This document shows, piece by piece, positions 1-64,000 of a stretch of 64,000 nt of DNA. A model generated the notes under the pieces. The model saw only the letters and a program-made list of their open reading frames with translations. It made no database searches and was not told the origin of the DNA. Source of the stretch: Eledone cirrhosa (Eukaryota); assembly GCA_964016885.1 (NCBI GenBank), contig OZ024740.1, forward strand, positions 24,304,001 through 24,368,000. The letters run 5' to 3'. Position 1 is the stretch's first letter, and every line of letters begins with the position of its first letter. Made by a program: the position numbers and the translations under genes.

Positions 1-121
1 TTATCTAAAAGTGCGATGTGCTGCATCAAGTTAAACATTTTAACGATAAATACAGGTCTATAAGTGAACATACTTGGTCGAAATGTGAAGTAGTGAAACA
101 TTTCTATATATTCAATTCTAA

Positions 122-424
122 CAATAATATTCATAATTGGAAACTATCTTTATAAAACCATATTTATTATATTATATATATTTCAATGGGTACCAATATT
201 TTGGTACGCTATCGTCAAATAAAATACAATAATTGGTTTACAGATAATGACATATCTACATATGAACTTAATGTTATGAGTTCAGATGTCGATATGTCAT
301 GATCTGTAAAACAATTATTGTATTTTATCTGACGATAGCGTACCAAAATATAAGTACCCTTGAAATATATATAATAAAATAAATATAGTTTTAAAAAGAG
401 AGTATCCATTTATTAATATTATTG
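122..424. repeat. Fold-back (inverted repeat) element, arms ~122-245 and ~302-424, each carrying an HHR motif
   Basis: The arms are reverse complements (e.g. aattggtttacagat / atctgtaaaacaatt). The tail 'aaataaatatggttttataaa..tagtttccattt' recurs at ~29581 and ~60297. Confidence 0.8.
322..380 (+). ncRNA. Type-I hammerhead ribozyme motif
   Basis: attttat-CTGACGA-tagcgtac..gtaccctt-GAAA-tatata-TA-ataaaat, with a perfect 7-bp stem I. The inverted copy at 166-225 has C3>T. Confidence 0.75.
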
Positions 425-1076
425 ATATTATACTCCAAAACTTGTCGAGTACTTCTAATCAACACATTAAATAATTCATTGTTATTCAATTCTAAATAGA
501 TATTATATAAGAGTCTTCATTCTATTTTATAAGCAATTTCATAATATCTCTGCGCATGAGCACATCATTCTTTATATCAAGTGTATATTCTCAGTATTTC
601 AAAGTCCCATCTCTCGGTTACGTATATTGTTTGGTTACATACATATGCCGGTCTGGTAAAACCTGAAAAGCTGTTTTCAAACTATATAGTTTTAAAAAAG
701 GGTAAAAAGATGTCCCGGTCCATTTGCTTAATAGTTTAAACCCCTAATCGATATCTGTGATATATGAGGTTCAATACCTCATAGCAGCCGATCGCAATTT
801 TCCCACATCTTTTAAGGGTCTTCACACCTTTTTTATAAGCTATTGCACATCATCCTTCATATTGATACGTTTTTTTTGTTTGTTTGTTTGTTTAAAGCGG
901 ACAATTTCATTATTGATACTTTATTTGATCCACCCCGTAAGGTTAAAAAGCTAATCTAACCGTGGCAAGATTCGAATTCAGAAGGTAAATGATCGGAACT
1001 AAGCATGTTGCCCGATGCTCAACCAATACTGCCAATACATCATTCTCTATGTATGATATATACTTGTTTCTTATAT

Positions 1077-9789: not shown

Positions 9790-12700
9790 AAAAACATCTG
9801 GGTCTCGCAACACAGATGGTACATTTGGACCCGGAGGGTCGACTAGTGGTTCTGGACCTTGGCAGTGGTAAAGGCGGAGCGTTTAGGTTGGTAGCCACCT
9901 ACGTCCCTTTCGGGTCAATGCGGCCGGACTTCTTCCATCGTCTGGAGACTTTTCTAGGGACGTCTAGCTCCTTGCTATTAGTGGGGGACTGGAATGGTAT
10001 CCTAGATGCACGCTGGGACTACGTAGGGGCCTGCCCCGATAGAGAGGGGTGTAATAGCCTCAAAGGGTTAATCGGTCGATTTGACCTGGCCGATAGATAT
10101 CGACTAGATTTTCCGACTGCGCCAACTTGGACTTGGGCAAATCGTAGCGGATCATCTAGGTCGTACCTAGATAGGTTCTTAGTTAGAATTAAGGATAAGG
10201 ACTTTTTAAGTTGTCCAAAAATGCGCATGGTTGGCTATTCAGACCACAAATTAGTGACCTGCATGGTCAACCTTGACAGAACTCATAGACAGGGACCCGG
10301 TTACTGGAAGCTCAACTTGTCCTTACCGGCAAGTAAGGCTTACAGGAACCGGATTAGCACTTTAGTTAAGGAGCGGATGACGGGCGCCATCGTCAACAGC
10401 AGGTGGTGGGGATCTCTCAAAAGAGAGATTAGAGTAGTCTCTATAGAATTTAGTAAGGAGTTAGCTTCAAATAGAAATAGGAAGGAAAGGGAGTTGGTAG
10501 ATAGTGTAGAAGAGGCAATTAGAAGCGGCGACGTGGTCAGAGTGCTAGCTAGAGAACGGCCCTGGGCCAGTTCTTCGACGCGAAACACGAAGGCTGCATC
10601 GTCCGAAGCAAAATACGTGATCTGGGAAACGAGGGGACCAAAGCTGTTAGCTAGGCCCGCGTGACAGAAGCCAAAAGAGGGAGCAGATCCACTATCCGGT
10701 CTTTGCGAGACCAGGATGGACGGGTGATCCTTAAACCTAAGCAGATGTGCGAGGCTTTTCAAAAGCACTTTGCCGGATTGTTCGGAACGGGCGGGGGGCC
10801 GGTTGGGGACGTGGACTTCGGTCCATACCTCGACGGCCTGTCGCGTCTCTCGGACAGGGAGGCGAAGTCCTGCGAGGAGCCGATTTCAGCCGCTGAGATA
10901 GAGGACGTGCTGAGCCAATGCGGCAAACGCAAATCCCCGGGTCTCGATGGTCATCCATACGAACTATATCTAGCTATGACGGACTTGTTCCCCGAACTCC
11001 TCGAGGCGGTCTACTGCAACTGGCAACAGAACGGGAGAATTCCCTGTGCTGTGACCAAGGACGTAGTCATGCTAGTGAGGAAGGACGAGAATAAGGGGGA
11101 CGATATAAATAATTTCAGGCCCATAACTCTGCTAAATACAGAGTTACAGATTTTGGCCAAGGTGCTAGCAAAGAGGTTGGCGCTTGTCGTGGGCAACCTG
11201 GTGGGAGATGCGCAGACATGTGCTATCCCGTCCAGGTCCATCCACGATAACCTCCACCTCATGCGATACATCATAGAGAGGGTTGGCAACGAACCCGGCT
11301 TTGGTGGGGCCCTGATCAACTTGGATCAATCTAAGGCATTCGATAGGGTCGACCATGGTTACCTGGATGCGGTGCTAGCGGCGGCAGGCTTCGGACCCGT
11401 TTTCAGGGGCTGGATCAATGCCATGCACAGCAGCCGCATCTGCTCTAGGGTCAAGGTGAACGGCTACCTCTCGGAGCCGTTCGAAATCGCCCTCTCTCCT
11501 CCCTTCTGTATGTAATGACTCTAGAGCCACTGCTGCGGAAGTTGGAGTTGTTGCAGGGCATCCCGTTGGAACCGGGATTGCGGAAAGCGGTGTCAGCCTA
11601 CGCCGATGACGTAACAGTAATGGTGTCGACGGCCTCGGAAATCAGGGCGATCGGCACCTTACTGGAGGAGTACGAAAGGTTTACAGGGGCTAAGCTGAAC
11701 CGGGACAAGTCGATCGGTCTGCAACTCGGCACGTGGAGGGGCAGATCGATGCCCTCTGATGGCGTCGTCGGGCGCTGGACGGAGGGACCGGTGAAGTTGC
11801 TCGGGGTCTGGTTCGGACCAGACCTCCAGGTGGAGACGAACTGGGGTGAGGTGACGAACAGGGTGTTTGCACTGACCCAGAAGTGGGCCGAGTGCAAACT
11901 GTCCCTGAAAGGACGGGCGGAGGTGGCGAACACTTATATAGCGTCCGTCATCTACTACCGCCTGACCGTTGTGCCTTGCCCAAGGGAAACGCTCGCCAAA
12001 ATGGAGCGCGCACTCTTCCAATTCCTTTGGAAGAAGCGGGCTCCTATGGTGAGGAGATCCATCTGCTGTCAACACCCTTCGAAAGGAGGGCTGGGGGTGC
12101 CGTGGCTAATGATACGTAAACACGCATTAAGGCTACGGCACCTTCAGGTATTCCTCTCCGGTCAACCGGTGTGGGCCCCGTTTGTGAGGCGAGCCTTTCC
12201 CAGACTCGTCTCACTCACCGAGCTGCAATCCTGGGTCAAGCAAAGACCGAGAAAACTGGGCGTCTGGCAAACCAAGTGTGCCCAGGCACTCACGGCTCTC
12301 TGGCAGGCGGACCCGGCTGTCAGTGGAGAATCCACCTCGTCATTCTATAGAGGGCTGGTGGTTAGCAGGTGCGACGACGCCCTCGGAGAAACCCTAGGCA
12401 TGGAGGAAGACGAACTGGCCAACCTGTTCGGTAGGACATTCAGCCCGGGACCCATGGATAACTTCCAGAGGTCCCTGGCCTGGCAATGCTACAGAAGGGC
12501 TCTGCCCGTTCGAGAAAGGCTCTACAGACACGGGCGCCCGGGTAGGGACCCATCGAAAAAGATCTGTCCCAGATGCGTGTGCGACGAGGAAACCGTTGCA
12601 CACGCATTGGTACACTGCTCGGGCATTGCCGATCTGTGGGGTTATGTCGAACAACTGCTGTCAAGGGTGGGACCAATCCGGTTGACCACCGTGTCTATTG

Positions 12701-13243
12701 TAACGATCAAGCCGCCTCCCCACTTCAAAAACGAAGGAGAGGCGGTGTTTCTGTGCGTAATAGCCATGGCGAAAGAGGTTGTATGGTGGACGCGTCTGAA
12801 AGGACTGAGGTCAGATACCTTTCTCTCTGGCCAACAACTGGTCCGTTTCTTCCGATATCATTTCGGAAGAAGGATCAGGATGGAGAGAGAGGTGCTGCAC
12901 CCCAGCCGTTTCTATGAAAGATGGGTGAAAGTGGCGAGAATGGCCCGTGTGAATGGGCCTTCACTCTACATCAGACTATAGGTGAGGAAGATGAAAGACC
13001 AAGGGAGCACACCTTCTCTGTGTTCCTGAGGAGAAGTGTTGCACACTTTTTTCGGGGGTGTGTGCGACCCCCCAAGGCGCCTCCTCTCTATTGAGGACTT
13101 TGTTATAAATTTTATTTTTTGTTATATTTTATTTTATTTTTATATATTGTTATTGCCTCCTCCTTATTGAGGACGCCTTGTTTTGTAAACTCCCCCATTG
13201 TACTTGTCCCACTTTTGATGCCCTGGTGGCAAATAAAAGAAAC
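9790..13243 (+). mobile_element. 5'-truncated Tx1/L1-clade LINE (ORF2 + 3' UTR)
   Basis: GC-rich block flanked by (TATC)n. Encodes an APE-RT-zinc knuckle polyprotein. The 3' UTR ends tggcaaataaaagaaa. Confidence 0.92.
9816..12981 (+). pseudogene. Disrupted LINE ORF2: AP endonuclease, reverse transcriptase, CCHC knuckle (pieces 9816-10664, 10661-11515, 11515-12981)
   Basis: APE motifs GDWN, YLDRF, SDHK and GPGYWKLN. RT motifs KSPGLDG, NFRPITLLN, LDQSKAFDRVDH and YADD. Knuckle CPRC..ETVAHALVHC. Frameshift near 10560; the 'RQGC' motif is deleted near 11490. Confidence 0.92.
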
Positions 13244-13910: not shown

Positions 13911-14005
<95 letters not shown>

Positions 14006-14152
14006 ATATATGAAAAGTGTAATTTACTACACAACACGAAGGTTGTAGAGAAAATTGAGGTTGGTAATGGCACATGGAATATATAAGAGACAGAATACTT
14101 TTTTGTGAAAAAACATATAATTTTATAAGGTAAGGAAATAATAAAGGGTATA

Positions 14153-14202
14153 AAAAATGACCGGTTTCGATGGGTCTGCAAAAGCCATCTTTTCAAATGT
14201 TG
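14153..14202 (-). ncRNA. Minimal hammerhead ribozyme, U3-A8 variant, weak stem I
   Basis: Minus strand: caacat-TTGAAAA-gatgg..ccatc-GAAA-ccgg-TC-atttt. Confidence 0.55.
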
Positions 14203-15185
14203 ATTAATATTAAGAAAAATTAATAATAAGAAAGTTAAAATTTGAGATTTGAAAATTCAAGTATAAAATTCATTGTGGGATTTCACAGTAGTTTTCATCT
14301 TGGTAGCAGCTCGTTTAGCAGCTCGTTGACTGCTGGGTCCCTTTCTGGTAGTGAATGAGAAGTTATTTGGGGGTGTGGGTTATTTTATAAAGGTCAAATT
14401 TAGCAATGGCCAGCTGCTGGTCAGTGAGGGGTGGAAGCAATATACATACACATATCTTCCTGTGGTGGGTAGGAGAGTGGAGCGTGATAGAAAGGGATTT
14501 AGTGCACTTACACCTATATATACACACATACCTTCATCCACACATACATACATATACATATACATACACATATATACACACATATATATATATATATATA
14601 TATCCATACATATACACACGTACATACACACACACATATACATATATATACACACACACACATATATGCACATACACACACATATATATATATATATACA
14701 CACACACACATATATATACATACACACATACAAACACACACACACACACACACATATATACACATACACACACATATATATACACACACACACACATACA
14801 CACACATATACACATACATACACCCACACACAGAGAAATGGCCTCCAAATATATATATATACATACATACACATATATTTTTTCCATAATATAAGAAGTT
14901 AGGACAGTGAAATTAAAATACAAGTCATTCTGATCACATTGAGTTCTTCGTGTAGATTGGGCCCCGCAACCGACAGTGGTGAATTCTGTGTGCGCATATA
15001 TATATATAGATATATGTGTGTGCACGGGCAGGGTTTAACATGGATGTGTTGGTCACACAAAGGCATGGTTTATCAACGAATAAACCTGATTCTACAGAAT
15101 TGGTCTCTGGTCTTTAATAGTGATGATAATTATATACATGCACACCTACAAACACATATATCTGTCACTCCGTGCGTATGTGTGT

Positions 15186-15892
15186 TTATATTTTATGACA
15201 ATTATATTGGGGTGATAACCCGTTTAGTTTTGGTTTAAATTTGTTAAGGAATAGATTTTCTTTGTTTATTCTTTGTTGCTGTGTGAACGAATCCGAGCAC
15301 TTGTAGAAGGGGAAGATTTTAAAGTTGGGTAGTGTCATTCCTGCGCAGTTCGCAATATGGCTGCTCAAGGGGATTTTTCTTGTGCTAGCATCACGGATTT
15401 GTTGGCGGTGGATGGTCATTCTTTTGCGTAATGAGGTGCCCGTCTGTCCTATGTAGTTGTGTTTGCACCCACCGAAAGTTATTGCGTAAATCAAGTTCTC
15501 CGAGTTGCAGGTGAAATTGTTTTTTACTGTAAATGTTTGGCCATCTTTAAATGTAAATGTTTGTCCTTCAGTGAGGTAGAGGCACGTTCCACAGTTTGTT
15601 CTACCACATTTGGTAACTGTAGGGTTGAGGATTGGTTTGGGTATATTTGGTCCAGTGAGAATGCGTTTTAGTGATTTGGGTTGTCTTTTACTTTTAAGGA
15701 TCTTGTGTGTTTCAAGAATAGACTTCATTTTTACATCTCTAAGTAGGATGGGGAGGTTTTTGTGTAGGTGATCAAACATTTCGGTATTTCTGGGGTTGAA
15801 AGTGGATACATATGGCAGGGTGTTGAGTGTGGTTTTCTGTTTTGGATTGTTAAGTTGATGCGGATTTAGGTGTTTTGCCCTGTCTATTCCAT
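15186..15892 (-). pseudogene. PLE C-terminus: Cys-rich linker + GIY-YIG endonuclease
   Basis: KCGRTNCGTC..NFTCNSENLIYAI...CKHNYIGQT...LRKRMTIHR..RINKENLF..KFKPKLN. Confidence 0.88.
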
Positions 15893-16117
15893 ATATATAT
15901 AACAAGGAAAGTGTGGTAACGAACCATGTGGAATATAAGGCACCAGGGTACTCGACACTTAGGGTAGTAGTGTGGGTAATAAAAAAGAGTCAGGACCTCG
16001 TTGGCTGGGCTCCGGCCGTTTCGACAACTAGATCCGAACTAAATCAGATACTACAGGTTTAGTTAGGATCTAGCTGTCGAAACGCCTGACCTCGGCCGCC
16101 GGGTTCCTGACTCTTTT

Positions 16118-16673: not shown

Positions 16674-18357
16674 ATACTTTGGGAGGGTCATGTTGCCAAT
16701 AAGAAACACACGCACCAGTTGCTTTCACTTCAATTTATTATAATAAATTTATAAATTTAGGAATTTATAAATTTCTGGTTGGTTGGTTCCACAACCAGAT
16801 AGTTGTTTATATATTGTCAAAGTTCTTTCGTCACACATTCTGTGACCTCTTCAGTGACTGGGGATTCTTTTCTTTGTGTTTGTGCCTCTCCTTTGTTCTG
16901 TCCTACGCCATTTTGTTTCTGTGTGTGTGTTGTGTGCTCAGTCTGCGCATGCGCCACATCCGCGTGTCTGTGTGTGTTTATATTCGTTTATTTATTTGTT
17001 TATTTATATGTTACCGGTTGGATGTTTGTTCTATGTGCGTGTGTGTTTTCATTTTGTCCTTAATTTTAAGTTGTGATGTTGCTGTTCCACTCATATTTTC
17101 TATTTAATTTTGGTTGTAATTCTTTTATGTTTATTGCCTCTGTGATTTGTCTAAACATTGCGTCTTTTCTGTGTGTATATTCTATTTTTATTTCTATGTT
17201 CTCTAATGTACCCTTATGTTCTATTTTAGCATGTTGGTAGCGTGCAGATGATCCTTTACTATCTTGAAGGTCTCGCCAGTGTTCATTTATCCATTCCCCT
17301 ACACTACGAGCTGTCTCATCTATGTACACTATATTTTTCTCTCTACATTGTCCTTCAGTACATCTTATGCTATATACTACATTTCTAGTTTTACAGTTAA
17401 TATGGGGGCTTATTTTACAGGTTATACATTTCTTATCTATAAAGGGGGGTCATTGAAAAGGGTATGTCTTGCTAATAAGTGTTTTTACGGAGGTACCTGG
17501 TCTTTTTACTATCTTAATATTGAGTTTATATTTATCTAGGGCCCTTCTAAATTTGTAAGCTAATTCACCTCTAGGGGTAGTATCGATGAACATTACACTC
17601 TGGTATTTATTGCTATCATACCATGAGTTTATTCTATTAGCCTTATTCCTAGTTCTTTCTATTCTATTCCAAAATTTGCTCCTATACAAGGGGCAGGTCC
17701 CATTTATGTCATTATTCACCATTTTTTCCCATTTGGTTCTGGCTCCTCTATACACTCTGATTTTATCTCTCTGATTGTAACCAGAGAACTGCATACGGTG
17801 GATGAAGTGTTGTATGTGTCTCTCTAATTCTTCGGGGTTGCACATGCGGGACACGTTTCTCATCACCCGTACCAAATCCGCAATCAGTATGTTGATTTTG
17901 GTATGGTCCGAAACAGCTGAGTTTCTGTGGATCAGATGTTTGGAAGTCATGGGTTTGGCATAATGGGAATGGAGGATTTGTTTTTGTTATTAATGGTATC
18001 TAACCAGAACTCTGTGTCTAGTACAGGTAATCGATGGTTGGGGTGTTTACTTGGGTAGTCTATAGTAACTCTAATACTCTGGTGGATGGAGGTATGTCTT
18101 GCTAATAAGTGTTTTTACGGAGGTACCTGGTCTTTCTACTATCTTAATATTGAGTTTATGCTTATCTAGGGCCCTTCTAAATTTGTAAGCTAATTCACCT
18201 CTAGGGGTTGTATCGATGAACATTACACTCTGGTATTTATTGCTATCATACCATGAGTTTATTCTATTAGCCTTATTCTTAGTTCTTTCTATTCTATTCC
18301 AAAATAGACTACCCAAGTAAACACCCAACCATCGATTACCTGTACTAGACACAGAGC
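16669..18357 (-). mobile_element. 5'-truncated, rearranged Penelope-like element (RT end, thumb, GIY-YIG, 3' pLTR with HHR)
   Basis: Reading frame ~18070-17066: DYPSKHPNHRLPVLD..YAKPMTS..MQFSGY..CITC..CKTRNVVYSIRC..YIDETARS..RQITEA..LNRKYEW. There is an internal duplication (18090-18304) and an inversion (18304-18357). The 3' end gtataacaa abuts (TA)n. Confidence 0.85.
16816..16858 (-). ncRNA. Minimal hammerhead ribozyme in PLE 3' pLTR
   Basis: Minus strand: gtca-CTGAAGA-g gtcac agaatgt gtgac-GAAA-gaac-TT-tgac. Confidence 0.75.
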
Positions 18358-18540
18358 TCTGCTTTCAACACACGTTTTCAGATAAAGAATCTTGCTAAAC
18401 AAATTCAGAAACCAAATATATATATATATATTTGTCTAAAGAGGTGATGGTGTCGTCCATTAGGAAGATAAGGCAAACATTTTAAGTTTCGAATTCTTTA
18501 CTAAGACAGAGTAAACATAGTTATAGAATTCTCCTGCGAC

Positions 18541-22305: not shown

Positions 22306-22819
22306 CACACACACATGTATATAATAGAAAACGAAAAATTCAGTGATGCATCTGAACTCAATTAATTGTGTGTTACAATTGTTTCGCTGGCGGACAGCTC
22401 GAGACGCGATCATTGTGTGGATCTGTCTGATTATGGACCCGCAGGTTTGAGGGACACGTCTCTCATATATATATGTATATATATATCACATAAGAAACGG
22501 AGAATCAGTGGTGCGACGAATAAAATGTATTAGGCATATTACAATCGTTTCTCCGGCGACCAGCTCGAGGCACGATCGATGCAATGATAGAATCTGACTC
22601 TGAAATCGCAAGATCCTCAGATATGTCTCGATATTTGGAAGCAGAGTTTCCAATATATATATATGACGGCGATGAATTTATTTTGCAAGTTCTTTCGTTG
22701 CACCTCAGCAACATCATCAGTGGTACTATTATGTCCCCTCCTATTGTATTGTATCGTAATGTCTACGTCATTTTAATTTTTTCCTATATTTTATTCATTT
22801 CTTAAAATTTAATCTGTTA

Positions 22820-22900
<81 letters not shown>

Positions 22901-22958
22901 CGTAAAATAGGTAAATGTTAAAAAATTTTAAAATATTAACTTACTTACTAAAATTTTC

Positions 22959-23039
22959 ACTCCAACTAATTAGTTTCTGCAATGGGATAAAGACAGTTAC
23001 GTAATAAACTGTCGGGAATTCATTGCGTCATCAGGGAGT
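22959..23039 (-). ncRNA. Type-I hammerhead ribozyme
   Basis: Reverse complement of 23821-23901. Confidence 0.8.
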
Positions 23040-23820
23040 CTATTCTCAGCTGAGTCTCCAGGCAATGCGCGGACACTGGGGACCCATATAAAAATAATAA
23101 TAATTCGGTAGATGGAACAGCTAGCGGGGACTGGATTCCATGTACTGAAAAGCTCGCTGTCACTGGTCAAATGGCAGATTCTAAAGAATCAATCACGTGA
23201 CACTGAGGCTAGTCGGTAGGAGTGGGATGGTAAGATGACAGAAGCCTACCAGCACACCAATAAATTAGTAGTGGTTTTGGCAGGTTTGCTCAACAAATAA
23301 GTAATTTGGAGATAAATATAGAGAATTTAGTATATCTACTAACATATGCGTACAGATGTACGCTAATGCTAGCAAATACACTGGTTATGTCATAGTACCT
23401 AGGTGGTTCAATGCAGGAGGATGCAGAACAATAATATAAAAGACGTAAAATAAGAAAATTTTAAAAAATTTTTAAAAATTAACTTACTTACTAATAGCGT
23501 ACATCTGTACGCATATGTTAGTAGATATACTAAATTCTCTATATTTATCTCCAAATTACTTATTTGTTGAGCAAACCTGCCAAAACCACTACTAATTTAT
23601 TGGTGTGCTAGTAGGCTTCTGTCATCTTACCATCCCACTCCTACCGACTAGCATCAGTGTCACGTGATTGATTCTTTAGAATCTGCCATTTGACCAGTGA
23701 CAGCGAGCTTTTCAGTACATGGAATCCAGTCCCCGCTAGCTGTTCCATCTACCGAATTATTATTATTTTTATATGGGTCCCCATTGTCCGCGCATTGCCT
23801 GGAGACTCAGCTGAGAATAG

Positions 23821-23901
23821 ACTCCCTGATGACGCAATGAATTCTCGACAGTTTATTACGTAACTGTCTTTATCCCATTGCAGAAACTAATTAGTTGGAG
23901 T
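23821..23901 (+). ncRNA. Type-I hammerhead ribozyme
   Basis: actcc-CTGATGA-cgcaatg..cattgca-GAAA-ctaattag-TT-ggagt, with palindromic stem III. Confidence 0.82.
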
Positions 23902-24074
23902 GAAAATTTTAATAAGTTAATTTTTTAAAATTTTTTAAAATTTTCTTATTTTACGTCTTTTATATTATTGTTCTGCATCCTCCTGCATTGAACCACCTAG
24001 GTACTATGACGTAACCTGTGTATTTGCTAGCATTAGCGTACATCTGTACGCATATGTTAGTAGATATACTAAAT

Positions 24075-24114
<40 letters not shown>

Positions 24115-24755: not shown

Positions 24756-24797
24756 AGCTTACAGCCTGTTTCACGCTGGCTGACGTTCATCAGAGCC
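24756..24797 (-). ncRNA. Minimal type-I hammerhead ribozyme
   Basis: Minus strand: ggct-CTGATGA-acg tcagccag cgt-GAAA-caggctg-TA-agct. Confidence 0.7.
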
Positions 24798-43756: not shown

Positions 43757-44914
43757 ACTCTTATTATTCTCTTTTTAATTACCCTTTCTGATTTACTTTC
43801 ATTTTTATCCTTATCATTAATTTCATTTATTTTTATTTTTATATATATTTTTTTATTTTTTATTTTTACTTCACATCCACCAATACCCCCCTCCCGCCTT
43901 ATTCTCCGATTCACTTAACTAATATTTTCACTTCACATTTTTACTCCCCTATTTCCTTCACTAACTGATTACAGTTGTCATTTGTGTTTTCCACTCCAGA
44001 TATATTTTTTATTTTTATTTTTATTATTTTTTTATTTTTTCGCAGCCAATCTTACAATTTTATATTTGTACTTACTTATCCACAAGTTTTTTACACCCTG
44101 TATCAATGTGGCTGAACGCCTTAATGTGTGTATACTTTCTATATATGTACATGAGCGACTACGTATGTGCGCGCGCGTGTGTGTATATATATATATATAT
44201 ATGTGTATGTATGCGTATGTGTATGTGTCTTTATATCCGTGTTTTTACATCTAGGTTTTATGTTTTGTTCCTTTTTTCTTTTCCCCCCTTTTTTTTACTT
44301 ACTCATTTTTATGCGTGTGCATGCAAACAGGTCAATATGCGTGAGTGTAAGTATGTGTGTGTGTGTGTGTGTGAGTACGTATCGAGCGTATGGATGTGTA
44401 AGTGTGCGTGTGTATATAAGCATGTATATTTTTGCGTTTATTTTGTGAGATATACGTGTGTGTGTATGTATGTACCTTTTTTGTCTTCTTTTCTTTAATT
44501 TTTTCTTTCTAAACTTATTGTTCCATTTTTATAAATATATCGAGATTGATACTTTCCTTTAATTATTACACTCCCTTACCTCTTTTACTTCCGCATCTAA
44601 GTGTACGTGTGTGTAGGTGTGTTTATGCGCGTGCCTTCATATTCTTATGATGTATCTATTCTGTCTGTAGATTACAGACATACAGATACATTTGCCCTAA
44701 ATTATATATTTACGCACACTTTTTCACTATACGTATACATATGTGCATACATATATATGCACATCTGTGAGCGTATATACATACATATACACACACCTAA
44801 CTATATTTCTTGAAAGATTATTATATGTTTCATATTCTAATTCATTTGTCTATATCTTTTTTGTTTTTTTTGCTTTTCTTGATGAGACTTTCCAAGTATT
44901 TACCCATGTTTTAT

Positions 44915-44992
44915 ATTGCCTCGTCTGACGAACGAATGAAGACGTTTCTTTCGTATTCGCCTCATTCGGGAAACCTCTGGTAATGAGGTAAT
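44915..44992 (+). ncRNA. Type-I hammerhead ribozyme
   Basis: attgcctcgt-CTGACGA-a cgaatga..tcattcg g-GAAA-cc tct gg-TA-atgaggtaat, with a 10-bp stem I. Confidence 0.88.
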
Positions 44993-45139
44993 TATATTGT
45001 ATTGATTTTTATACATTAAATTTTGCTCTGATACTTACATAGAGCACTCTTCACTTCTATGACCTTTTCTGTTTTCAACGGAAATTTCAATACTTATATA
45101 TATAGAAAAGAATGAAATGAAATCTCATTTCTCACTCTT

Positions 45140-50514: not shown

Positions 50515-51427
<913 letters not shown>

Positions 51428-61200: not shown

Positions 61201-61404
61201 GAGTTGAGATGGAGGGTCTGTGGTTTTTCTCACATCTGGTTGGTCTTTGAATGTTACTTCTTTTATATGGAAAAAAGTGGCTCGCAACGCCAGGTTTTTA
61301 GAGAAGTAATTTGATTGGTTGGTCAAATAATAAATTTCGCGCCAGTTCGCGTTACAAAGTTCTTCAAAACAAGGGGGGAGGCTCAGGTTGTTTTTTCATA
61401 TATG

Positions 61405-62085
61405 AGTGTTTGAATTTCTTTTTACTTTAAAAAAAAGGGGTCCACGAAGGCTTTTTTTTAATAAACGCAATTTGATTGGTTATAAATGAAATTATGGCTG
61501 TCACGTGAACAAGTTTTCATTAAATTTCGCGCCCGTATTTGGAAATTTATTCTGTAGCCTTTTTAGAGAATTTTATGACAAGCAAAAGATAATGGTCAAG
61601 AGAAATGGGATGGGAGAATTGTTCTGGTTAAGTGAATATGGTTAGTTCGCTGGCGCGTCAGAATTCAGATTTTCTATTGAAATAAAGAAAGTAAAGATAT
61701 ATATGTTTATTTGTGTGCTTGTGTGTGTGTATGTGTATGTGTGTGTGTGTGTGTTTGTTTGAATTTCTTTTTACTTTAAAAAAAGGGTCTCACGAAGGCT
61801 TTTTTTAATAAACGTAATTTGATTGGTTATAAATGAAATTATGGCTGTCACGTGAACAAGTTTTCTTTAAAATTCGCGCCCGTATTTGGAAATCTATTCT
61901 GTAGCCTTTTAAGAGAATTTTATGACAAACAAAAGATAATGGTCAAGAGAAATGGGATGGAAGAATTGTTATGGTTCAGTGAATATGGTTAGTTCGCTGG
62001 GGTGTCAGAATTCAGATGTTCTATTGAAATAAAGAAAGGAAAGTTATGTATGTTTATTTGTGTGATTGTGTGTGTGTGTGTGTGT
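61405..62085. repeat. ~350-bp tandem duplication within the PLE 3' region
   Basis: gtttgaatttctttttactttaaaaaaa..cacgaaggc occurs at ~61408 and ~61757. Confidence 0.9.
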
Positions 62086-62360
62086 GTATAGGAAAATGAT
62101 TCTATTAGTAGAAATGAGGGAGGGAGTTGTGTCTGTGTGTGTATATGGGTGTTCTGTGTTTGTGTGTGTGTGGGAGTATGTTAAGATGGAGAGAATATAT
62201 ATATTTTGTGTGTGTGTATATGTGTGTAGGAAAGTGATTCTATTAGTAGAAATGGGGGAGGGAGTTGTGTGTGTGTGGGTGGGGTTGTTATGTGTGTGTA
62301 TAGGTGTTATGTGTGTGTGGGAGTATGGTTAGCATGTTAAGATGAAGAGAATATATATAT

Positions 62361-62477
<117 letters not shown>

Positions 62478-64000
62478 GAAAATGATTCCGTTAGTAGGAA
62501 TATTTTTGAATGAAGATATTTTCCTTACTTATTCGTATCTGTTCTGTTGTATTGTCAGCGCAAACGTGTGATAAGGTTTATTTAGTTCGAGTTTTTATTT
62601 TCTAAAGTAGCAGGTCTTATGTGTGTGTGTATGTGTCTGTTTGGATGGTTAGCATGCTATTGTGTTGACATAATGTATATTAAACCATATTTAATGTTGG
62701 TCTATATTTTTGAATAAACATATGTTCCTTATTTATTCGTATTTGTTCTGTTGTATTGTCAGCGCAAAGGTAAAATGGGAAGACTTGGAATGTGGGTGTC
62801 TTATTACTTGCGCGTATGTCTACATGTGCGCTTATTGTTATCTGTCTCGTGGTTGGATCTCGTATTTGTTGGCGATAAACTGTCATTCTGTTTCTGAGTG
62901 TGAGTTTAGTTTGTCCTATATAATCTTCATTGCGTCCTTTACATTTAATGGCATAAAATAAATTTTTTGATGAGCAAGTGAAGTGATTTTTTACAGCAAA
63001 ATTTTATCCTGATTTAAATGTATACGTGTTGCCTTCAATGAGGTGTGTGCAGGTTCCACAATTAGAGCGACCACATTTTTTGACAGTTGGTTGTTGGTTT
63101 GTGGTAGGTAATTTGGCATTGGTGAGTAATGTTTTCAGTGATTGCTTTAGCCCTTTCTATTCCATTATTTATTAGTAATGGTGGGTACTCTCTTTCGAGT
63201 AGAATTTCCCTTAATTCTTGAAGTCTTTTATTTCGCGTTTCATAATTAGAGACAATTGTGCAAATTCTTCTTGCTAGGTTAAAAGGAATGTTCATCTTCG
63301 TGTGCTTTGGATGGTTGGAGGTGAATAGCAGGTATTGTTTGGAATCTGTTGGTTTGTAGTGTATGTCAGTTTTAATATTTGTGTCTTTTTTTAAGATTAA
63401 GATGTCCAGAAATGGGCGTTGATCTTGGTTGTATTCCATTGTGATTTGGATGTGGTTATTGATGGCGTTTATTAAGTTTTTGAAATCCTTCAGTTGGTCG
63501 AGTGTGTGGGATCATGGTATGAGACAATCATGCAAGTAGCGTTTCCAATTCTCTGATGAATATTTGTGGAAATTCACTCCGTATTTTGATTTGTACTGTT
63601 CATATATCTAGATTTCTAAGTATCCCATGAATAAGTTGTCATAAGTTGGAGCGGATTTTGTACCCATCGCTGTCCCCGATATTTGCTTGTAAGTACTGCC
63701 ATCAAAATCAAAAAAGTTGTTCTGTAAGATGAATTTTAATCGCTCGGTGATGAAGCTTTTTTCTATGCTGCCAGGTATCTCATTGGGATATTTCTCTAGC
63801 CAGAATCCTGTTGCTTCTAGTCCGTATTGGTGTGGGATCGTTGTGTAGAGATTCACTACATCGAAAGACACAATAATAGTGTCGTTGTTGACATGTTTGG
63901 GGAGGTGGTTTAAGAGGTCCAGATCGTCTCTTACAAGGCTTGGTATGTGTTTGAGAATTGGTTTTAGTAATATGTCTATAAGGTTGCTCAGTATGTGTGT

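Follow-up and report, generated by a model that had tools for sequence, protein, structure and literature searches.

The locus described here raised the question of how a short non-coding repeat came to lie as two inverted arms in a (TA)n tract, and from what kind of RNA these arms were copied. It was found in a window of 64,000 nucleotides of Eledone cirrhosa genomic DNA, and its unit of about 540 nt carried a hammerhead ribozyme motif. The initial annotation had read it as a retrozyme, suggesting that reverse transcription past a full turn of a circular or tandem RNA had produced the arms and that neighbouring Penelope-like elements (PLEs) had supplied the enzymes. Our reading, to which we give a probability of roughly 0.8, is that the element is a non-LTR retrozyme without a protein of its own, and that both arms arose in one event in which a PLE-type reverse transcriptase and endonuclease would have cut (TA)n and copied one RNA variant, likely often a circle, from two start sites, A and B. 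This reading builds on the unit, the family size, the fixed ends, the pairing of A with B, the (TA)n target, the microhomology joints, the single variant per insertion and the conserved fold, all of which were established in the genomic DNA.

The two arms lay on opposite strands and were 97.3% identical over 475 nt. The repeats that defined the periods were found as claimed: TAGCGTACATCTG at 23495 and 24034 (539 nt apart) and GACGTAAAATA at 22899 and 23442 (543 nt apart). The 1.1 units ascribed to each arm agreed with our value of 1.11. A pattern scan also recovered the single hammerhead proposed for each arm (23826-23896 on the plus strand, 23034-22964 on the minus strand), with the cleavage triplet GUU at 23894-23896 as predicted. 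The (TA)n setting was as described, with (TA)35 at 22825-22895, overlapped by the final bases of the left arm, and (CT)9 followed by (TA)10 on the right; the unit could template no more than two repeats of this (CT)9. The unit indeed lacked an ORF: the longest ATG-started frame was 35 aa in the tripled reference monomer of the window's subfamily and 64-67 aa in two other monomers. This reference was a natural monomer of 543 nt (L009), and units were numbered from the first base past the predicted cut (+1 = 23897). The claim that the arms began at different points was correct for their inner 5' ends, which varied, and failed for the outer 3' ends, which fell at two sites fixed across the family.

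Table. Coordinates of the retrozyme insertion at 22825-24114 and of related features in the window.
Feature	Position	Strand	Details
(TA)n target tract, left part	22825..22895	.	
Left arm	22891..23494	-	1.11 units; starts at +13, contains one hammerhead, ends at fixed end A (+72)
Left-arm type I hammerhead motif	22958..23039	-	core CUGAUGA from 23034; predicted cut after 22964
Arm joint, blunt, 5'-to-5'	23494..23495	.	
Right arm	23495..24079	+	1.11 units; starts at +141, contains one hammerhead, ends at fixed end B
Right-arm type I hammerhead motif	23821..23901	+	CUGAUGA 23826-23832, GAAA 23883, GUU 23894-23896
Site A, read through within right arm	23951..23965	+	TTACGTCTTTT, then ATAT
End B	24071..24114	+	AAATTCTCT, then (CT)9, then (TA)10
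Second insertion of the retrozyme family, ~80% identical subfamily	50616..51376	.	
Neptune-like autonomous PLE, 5'-truncated copy, candidate helper	13980..15900 (bounds approximate)	-	
Hydra-type PLE, broken copy, candidate helper	41880..45092 (left bound approximate)	+	hammerhead 44925-44982

Upstream of the hammerhead lay a nearly invariant, E-box-like GTCACGTGATTGATT (23656-23680) and a TATA-like TTTTTATAT (23766-23777), which together could be a putative promoter of the unit. Positions +6..+58 (window 23902-23950) formed a hypervariable hairpin of A/T runs whose lengths and A/T order varied even among the units of one array, while its self-complementarity was roughly kept. The second insertion in the window consisted of a short minus-strand arm reaching A and a long plus-strand arm reaching B with a CT tail.

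The hammerhead motif combined a stem I of ACUCC/GGAGU, the core CUGAUGA, a stem II of about 50 nt, GAAA, GUU and a palindromic stem III, ACUAAUUAGU. It had the conserved elements of the type I ribozyme (CUGANGA, GAAA and UH within three helices), the helices comprising 5, 6 and at most 4 pairs. Rfam models applied to 22890-24085 returned no hammerhead family at E<=10 and two chance matches, both to snoR144; across the whole window, no hammerhead was present among the 150 of 163 matches listed. The long stem II was probably the cause. Since Rfam was silent, the ribozyme assignment rests on the motif together with the covariation of stem II. Stem III formed no hairpin alone, and two copies formed a 10-bp duplex of -9.0 kcal/mol. 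In the accessible text of Cervera and de la Pena (2014, PMC4209133), such a dimeric arrangement is thought to permit the cleavage of multimers and to spare monomeric circles. A competing fold was lower by 5.7 kcal/mol and the cleavage position 17 was U, both of which suggest that cleavage may be slow. The conserved core, the covariation of stem II and the 5' ends found at the cleavage site bear only indirectly on self-cleavage of the putative transcript.

Conservation of the fold extended over the whole unit. Four monomers folded 4.3-6.7 standard deviations better than their shuffles (15 each). In an alignment of 14 monomers, 15 of 111 predicted pairs, in six helices round the unit, changed on both sides; none of 500 shuffles scored as high and slid controls gave 2-6, the structure being derived from the same alignment and the control taking no account of relatedness.

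Genome-wide, the core pattern matched 8,749 intact hammerhead cores in 3.0 Gb, compared with 0 in the reversed control, and a 20-mer of the hammerhead had 1,942 exact matches. The family thus proved to number in the thousands in the genome-wide count that the initial annotation had proposed, and copies on many contigs showed it to be dispersed. Natural monomers, measured from one core to the next, were 521-571 nt long (a few with expanded homopolymers reached 594 nt) and had a GC content of 34-37%. Subfamilies as distant as 73% identity remained collinear across the whole unit, here 521-559 nt long. A pattern for a short stem II gave 29 matches, read as deletion variants of the retrozyme family, and a search with a motif taken from the loose end of a contig found nothing.

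For closer analysis we assembled 148 distinct loci in four sets. The first 21 came from the 30 best full-length matches once those duplicating a single insertion or a segmental repeat had been removed; 54 were taken in chromosome order among the 20-mer matches, 40 were chosen among the core matches for differing types of stem II, and the last 33 comprised 28 further loci, 4 core matches and one array, C353. Except for the set of 21 and the C353 array, all were located within the first 160 Mb of one contig. The C353 array contained 3.9 and 3.8 units with no substitution among units or arms in the columns compared, and was either a very recent insertion or an assembly collapse.

It has been proposed for vertebrate retrozymes that pLTR stumps of an autonomous PLE were later duplicated locally, at the DNA level, into short arrays (bioRxiv 10.64898/2026.07.22.740005); in its accessible text, 24 of 57 Xenopus families were homologous to annotated transposable elements, nearly all of them PLEs. 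In Eledone, a tblastn search using nine proteins encoded in the window and at one further locus (L131) found none of the 148 loci attached to a PLE ORF, and the PLE fragments near many loci were never continuous with the unit; the sample was a small share of the family and a rare ORF-bearing parent is possible. Tandem multimers, for which the initial annotation had suggested a search, reached 6.3 units per arm. The unit was accordingly, as the initial annotation had supposed, a self-contained tandem hammerhead repeat of about 540 nt rather than a pLTR stump. Units within an arm were no more alike (1.3% divergent) than inverted arms (1.1-1.3%), so the arrays were not homogenised after landing, and all subfamilies were collinear and covarying over the whole unit. 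An origin from duplicated stumps was therefore very unlikely for this family. One candidate tandem of a PLE with the unit was rejected, being a local duplication that held a short insertion.

The evidence for PLE machinery came from the ends. When start and end points were mapped, as the initial annotation had recommended, 227 of 248 arm 3' ends fell at two sites and the inner 5' ends were scattered and variable. Site A (n=110) occupied +58..76, mostly +72, and site B (n=117) occupied +172..200, mostly +189..197 (+194). Of these A and B ends, 219 of 227 entered (TA)n or (CT)n; target-site duplications are unreadable in (TA)n. The two sites were also strictly paired. Among 79 head-to-head joints in 115 loci, 68 united an A arm with a B arm, and a further 33 loci gave 14 such pairs among 17 joints; AA and BB combinations were absent from both samples. 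All 82 intact head-to-head insertions were consequently AB, the other 14 joints having a broken outer end. Where the joints of 79 AB pairs were read, 48 showed microhomology of 1-10 nt, 11 were blunt, 16 carried small inserts and 4 had larger overlaps. Fixed 3' ends, a tail at one end and an inverted 5'-truncated arm are the insertion anatomy of PLEs, and the microsatellite target is likewise one expected of a non-autonomous PLE.

Other origins of the inverted arm agreed poorly with these data. For rotifer Penelope elements that have palindromic joints, fold-back self-priming at a palindrome on the antisense RNA has been proposed (PMC3846280), and in 6 of 79 Eledone joints both arms did start within 5 nt of each other. 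However, the remaining 73 joints united two different positions, and folding back would give both arms an identical outer end, whereas the observed ends were always one A and one B; we consider this route highly improbable here. A DNA-level element of the fold-back or MITE-like kind, or an assembly artefact, was suggested by long inverted arms in low-complexity DNA and by homopolymer lengths that differed among units. Against it, the arms differed in length and end point, their 5' ends were scattered, the same anatomy recurred on many contigs and in ORF-bearing PLEs, and contigs of another data set covered the unit, which makes such an explanation extremely unlikely. Those public contigs had no informative joint or end and do not bear on expression. 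Twin priming of the L1 type on one linear RNA, in which one arm stops at the start site of the other, was also rejected (5 of 158 arms compared with 7.6 expected).

The proposal that PLE machinery moved the element was thus supported by the end anatomy, because fixed ends and the AB rule were common to autonomous PLEs of the same genome. The Neptune-like family had an intact frame of 758 aa from the first Met, with an RT domain, a GIY-YIG domain and a CX4CX2C linker as in PMC8557442. Its two ends lay 36 nt apart, and pairing of the AB type was seen in 12 of 12 two-armed insertions after duplicates were merged. The hammerhead-like core of this family read UUGAAAA, which we take to be U3-A8 in place of the usual C3-G8 pair. 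The Hydra-type family (41880-45092) had the DKT and CxCX5C motifs and the same end pairing in 3 of 3 cases. The Neptune-like PLE (13980-15900; L131) was very abundant and young, with 19,112 first-look candidates that partly belonged to related families, a tandem period of about 4.85 kb and a second long frame that appeared upstream of the RT frame. Several 3' regions of Neptune-like elements contained CACGTG, CCAAT and TATA-like motifs in an order similar to that of GTCACGTGATTGATT and TTTTTATAT in the unit.

The more specific claim, that the neighbouring PLEs were the source of the enzymes, fared less well: they had no significant sequence in common with the unit, and one chimera hinted at the Hydra-type neighbour. 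We found no likeness between the unit and the Neptune-like 783-aa family, a second Neptune-like family, the ends of seven other PLE fragments or the adjoining small hammerhead family, nor with Hydra-type fragments, where 17-93 of 200 shuffles scored as high; the PLE families covered were part of those in the genome. The neighbours were probably close to the unit through their shared (TA)n target. In the chimera (L162:3826-4247), a B arm and an inverted Hydra-type short end of 109 nt met head to head with no TA tract between them; this was one among 44 single-arm flanks listed. If it arose in one event, it suggests the Hydra-type family as helper and the use of two RNAs per insertion; alternatively, it is a chance adjacency.

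Other elements were observed in the same window. A second small hammerhead-like family (22317-22650; L204-L227; 1,814 first-look candidates) had a long stem II, a palindromic stem III, an often degenerate core, inverted arms and a tail of about 75 nt. No PLE ORF was found among 25 of its loci, and it is possibly another non-autonomous PLE. At 24760-24793, 17066-18360 and 61400-63511, all on the minus strand, at least three more PLE families were represented by ends or fragments, most of which ended in (TA)n. A frameshifted LINE with AP-endonuclease and RT domains occupied 9792-12981 on the plus strand. An abundant SINE looked like an octopus SINE, and the named relatives of one PLE protein came from bivalve-symbiont bins. 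About 420 copies of a 15-nt repeat (32068-38400) left a frame open for 2,288 codons, and may represent a mucin-like exon or a mere minisatellite.

The variants carried by each insertion provided insight into its template. At informative columns of two subfamilies (38 and 37 loci), the arms of one insertion differed in 7.9% and 2.1% of cases and the units of one arm in 8.3% and 2.3%, compared with 36% and 39% between loci; within-locus discordance at these columns exceeded the within-locus background. Rare alleles common to both arms numbered 28. With arm ends masked, every comparison within an insertion gave a divergence of 1.1-1.3%, and odd-one-out counts of 70:73:56 favoured no source-unit register. 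A seemingly lower divergence of same-register arms was caused by repeat tails at the arm ends and was gone after masking. Equal divergence without a favoured register indicated that units and arms were essentially identical at landing. Such identity would fit one monomer copied repeatedly, and it would also fit a very young source array.

The start sites shared a common design: both A and B lay in a pyrimidine stretch about 10 nt 3' of a hairpin. The AUA(U) that came next may base-pair with a (TA)n primer. They differed in their tails. Tails of (CT)4-49 occurred at 21 of the 40 B ends whose template was CTCT, and CT tails of at least four repeats at 2 of 39 CTTT B ends, 2 of 35 ATCT B ends and 1 of 112 A ends, templates being assigned by the nearest monomer and some possibly misassigned. 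The sequence TCTCTC was present at 13 of the 112 A ends, yet a CT tail occurred at just 1 of the 112. No CT tail was found at 49 internal B sites, and CT tails were seen at 8 of 18 Neptune-like short ends. Since the repeats accompanied priming at a single site and varied with the template, reiterative copying is suggested as their origin. Slippage tails are known for LINEs. The reverse transcriptases of PLEs are sister to telomerase (PMC8557442).

Whether the template was a circle was a separate question. The initial annotation had taken arms longer than one turn as a sign of a circular or tandem RNA, but such arms do not in themselves indicate a circle: the left arm started at +13 and ended at A, as a linear RNA cut at the upstream hammerhead would give, and such 5' ends were enriched in the family. 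Of 84 arms that reached +40 on a later pass, 23 had their 5' end within +1..+40, where 6.2 were expected (3.7-fold), and this excess exceeded that of other AT-rich parts (p=0.0002); in 77 independently chosen arms the overall excess in the zone was not significant (p=0.16). A second excess appeared at +460..487 after two crossed sites. In five AB insertions the start of an arm lay no more than 2 nt from the cleavage site; in one of them (L252) this was true of both arms. The hammerhead nearest the start site was little affected (4 of 53 B arms; 1.7 times background), and joint stopping of both arms close to the cleavage site did not reach significance (p=0.13). Since a circle would have no such ends, the enrichment of post-cleavage 5' ends indicated that linear RNAs cut at the upstream hammerhead probably also served as template, and 1.1 turns alone show no circle. 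The left arm of 22891..23494 may have come from such an RNA, being in the enriched class.

These ends would also be produced if the template were always linear, that is, a read-through of a young tandem array whose 5' end came from hammerhead cleavage or from a promoter just upstream of the hammerhead, with the 3' hammerheads left uncut. Both excesses, the one at +1..+40 and the one at +460..487 at the second hammerhead, and the insertion with both arms beginning at the cleavage site agree with that explanation, and unprocessed linear RNA was the dominant PLE substrate in vitro (PMC11167929). However, daughters of a linear read-through can never exceed their parents, yet arms of up to 6.3 units persisted in subfamilies whose identity was as low as 73%. 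New variants were fixed in all units and both arms, with no older divergence among source units; we infer from variants fixed in every unit a bottleneck of one unit followed by re-amplification. Furthermore, crossed cleavage sites bore few scars of end-to-end template jumps. We regard an exclusively linear template as possible but rather doubtful.

Other observations favoured circles. A cleavage site was crossed by 128 of 143 arms, and 73 arms were longer than one unit. Survival per turn was roughly level (34 of 122, 7 of 34, 2 of 7 and 1 of 2), and the stop rate showed no rise with length, being 2.0, 3.2 and 2.5 per kb in turns 1-3. The crossed sites were one of three subfamily forms in 235 of 259 cases and most others were one letter off, in a sample drawn in part with a pattern that itself contains the site. 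Within the model of paired priming, we therefore read the template as mixed and lean slightly towards a circle as the regular template, judging from genomic sequence.

The preferred mechanism, a paired event on one RNA variant, would proceed as follows. Arrays would be transcribed. Hammerhead cleavage, with stem III needing two paired copies for stability, would occur mostly in multimers and release monomers, which would be ligated into circles. A dimer of the PLE protein would nick both strands of (TA)n, and each 3' end would pair with the AUA just 3' of the post-hairpin pyrimidine stretch of either site A or site B. Where B is used, slippage of the enzyme on the UCUCU template would first yield (CT)n, after which copying would continue. 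The two cDNAs would then extend variably past at least one intact cleavage site and be joined 5'-to-5' at microhomologies of 0-10 nt. In a more specific form, which we put forward tentatively and at slightly less than even odds, a single RNA circle of 540 nt per insertion would be copied simultaneously by an asymmetric PLE dimer, an A half and a B half each acting on its own strand, with the B half first adding (CT)n in a telomerase-like manner from a hairpin-bounded template. If true, this would be direct genomic evidence that circles of animal retrozymes serve as templates of retrotransposition, and it would explain the one-end tail and the inverted structure of PLEs generally.

Judged by the definition applied to sequences, the unit is a non-LTR retrozyme. 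Like the metazoan non-LTR retrozymes described in the accessible text of PMC7229834 and bioRxiv 10.64898/2026.07.22.740005, it is a non-coding tandem unit of low GC with one type I hammerhead and a length inside the reported 51-972 bp, and PLEs have been proposed as helpers there too. Cervera and de la Pena (2020, PMC7229834) regarded PLEs as a strong candidate helper, and Li, Clavereau and Pollet (2026, bioRxiv 10.64898/2026.07.22.740005) used co-occurrence and resemblance to pLTRs in vertebrates to argue for a PLE origin and suggested local amplification. The Eledone unit differs in forming dispersed short head-to-head arrays with two fixed ends, insertion ends not being described in those texts. 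Circles have been shown for metazoan retrozymes, whereas the Eledone unit is known here from genomic DNA alone. It is distinct from the plant LTR retrozyme, which has type III hammerheads in two LTRs, because it is type I and tandem, and we found no LTR pair. The dimer-dependent hammerheads of metazoan PLEs and satellites, as far as the accessible text of PMC4209133 describes them, likewise have a short palindromic helix III, an extra nucleotide before helix II and covarying families; the Eledone motif departs from them in its very long stem II (about 50 nt with an internal loop) and in the U at the cleavage position. A squid genome paper counted 235 hammerheads and, in its accessible text, reported nothing further (PMC6962438). 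Our search of the open-access literature found no report of retrozyme insertion ends or of cephalopod retrozymes, nor of strict start-site pairing (which subscription reviews of PLEs may state) or repeat addition at one site.

Papers on animal retrozymes state as open, in their accessible text, what moves these elements and whether circles are the template (PMC7229834; bioRxiv 10.64898/2026.07.22.740005), and how PLEs produce inverted ends of which a single one is tailed is likewise stated as open (PMC8557442). The Eledone family links both questions. Its thousands of short, readable insertions combine PLE-type ends on a retrozyme with one start site of each kind, one variant per insertion and repeats at one site. 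It offers a clean record of integration by PLE machinery and mixed, indirect evidence on circular templates, and an RNA of 540 nt whose two start sites are defined makes a convenient substrate in vitro.

Among known systems, the closest parallels in end structure are endonuclease-bearing PLEs (Craig et al. 2021, PMC8557442; Arkhipova et al. 2013, PMC3846280), which share the inverted arm, the tail at one end, the (TA)n target and a hammerhead upstream of the ends. In contrast to them, the Eledone unit has no ORF, its ends are about 122 nt rather than 30-40 nt apart, and a tail "often at one end only" has become a strict rule (82/82). Non-autonomous PLEs of Chlamys such as MRC1 (PMC8557442, accessible text) also form multicopy head-to-tail insertions. 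Their 3' end is generally similar to that of an autonomous family, whereas we found no family resembling the Eledone unit, and canonical hammerheads are absent from most Chlamys. The Anolis PLE Poseidon (Frangieh et al. 2024, PMC11167929) cut and extended both target strands in vitro, used uncut RNA and had two internal start sites downstream of the hammerhead that define the tail. Its start sites were said not to match the cut DNA, whereas both Eledone sites precede AUA(U); the pairing of sites per event and the addition of repeats at one site were seen in the Eledone unit and are unreported for Poseidon. Thus, the kind of element is already known, and the Eledone family is a mechanistic addition to it rather than a new system.
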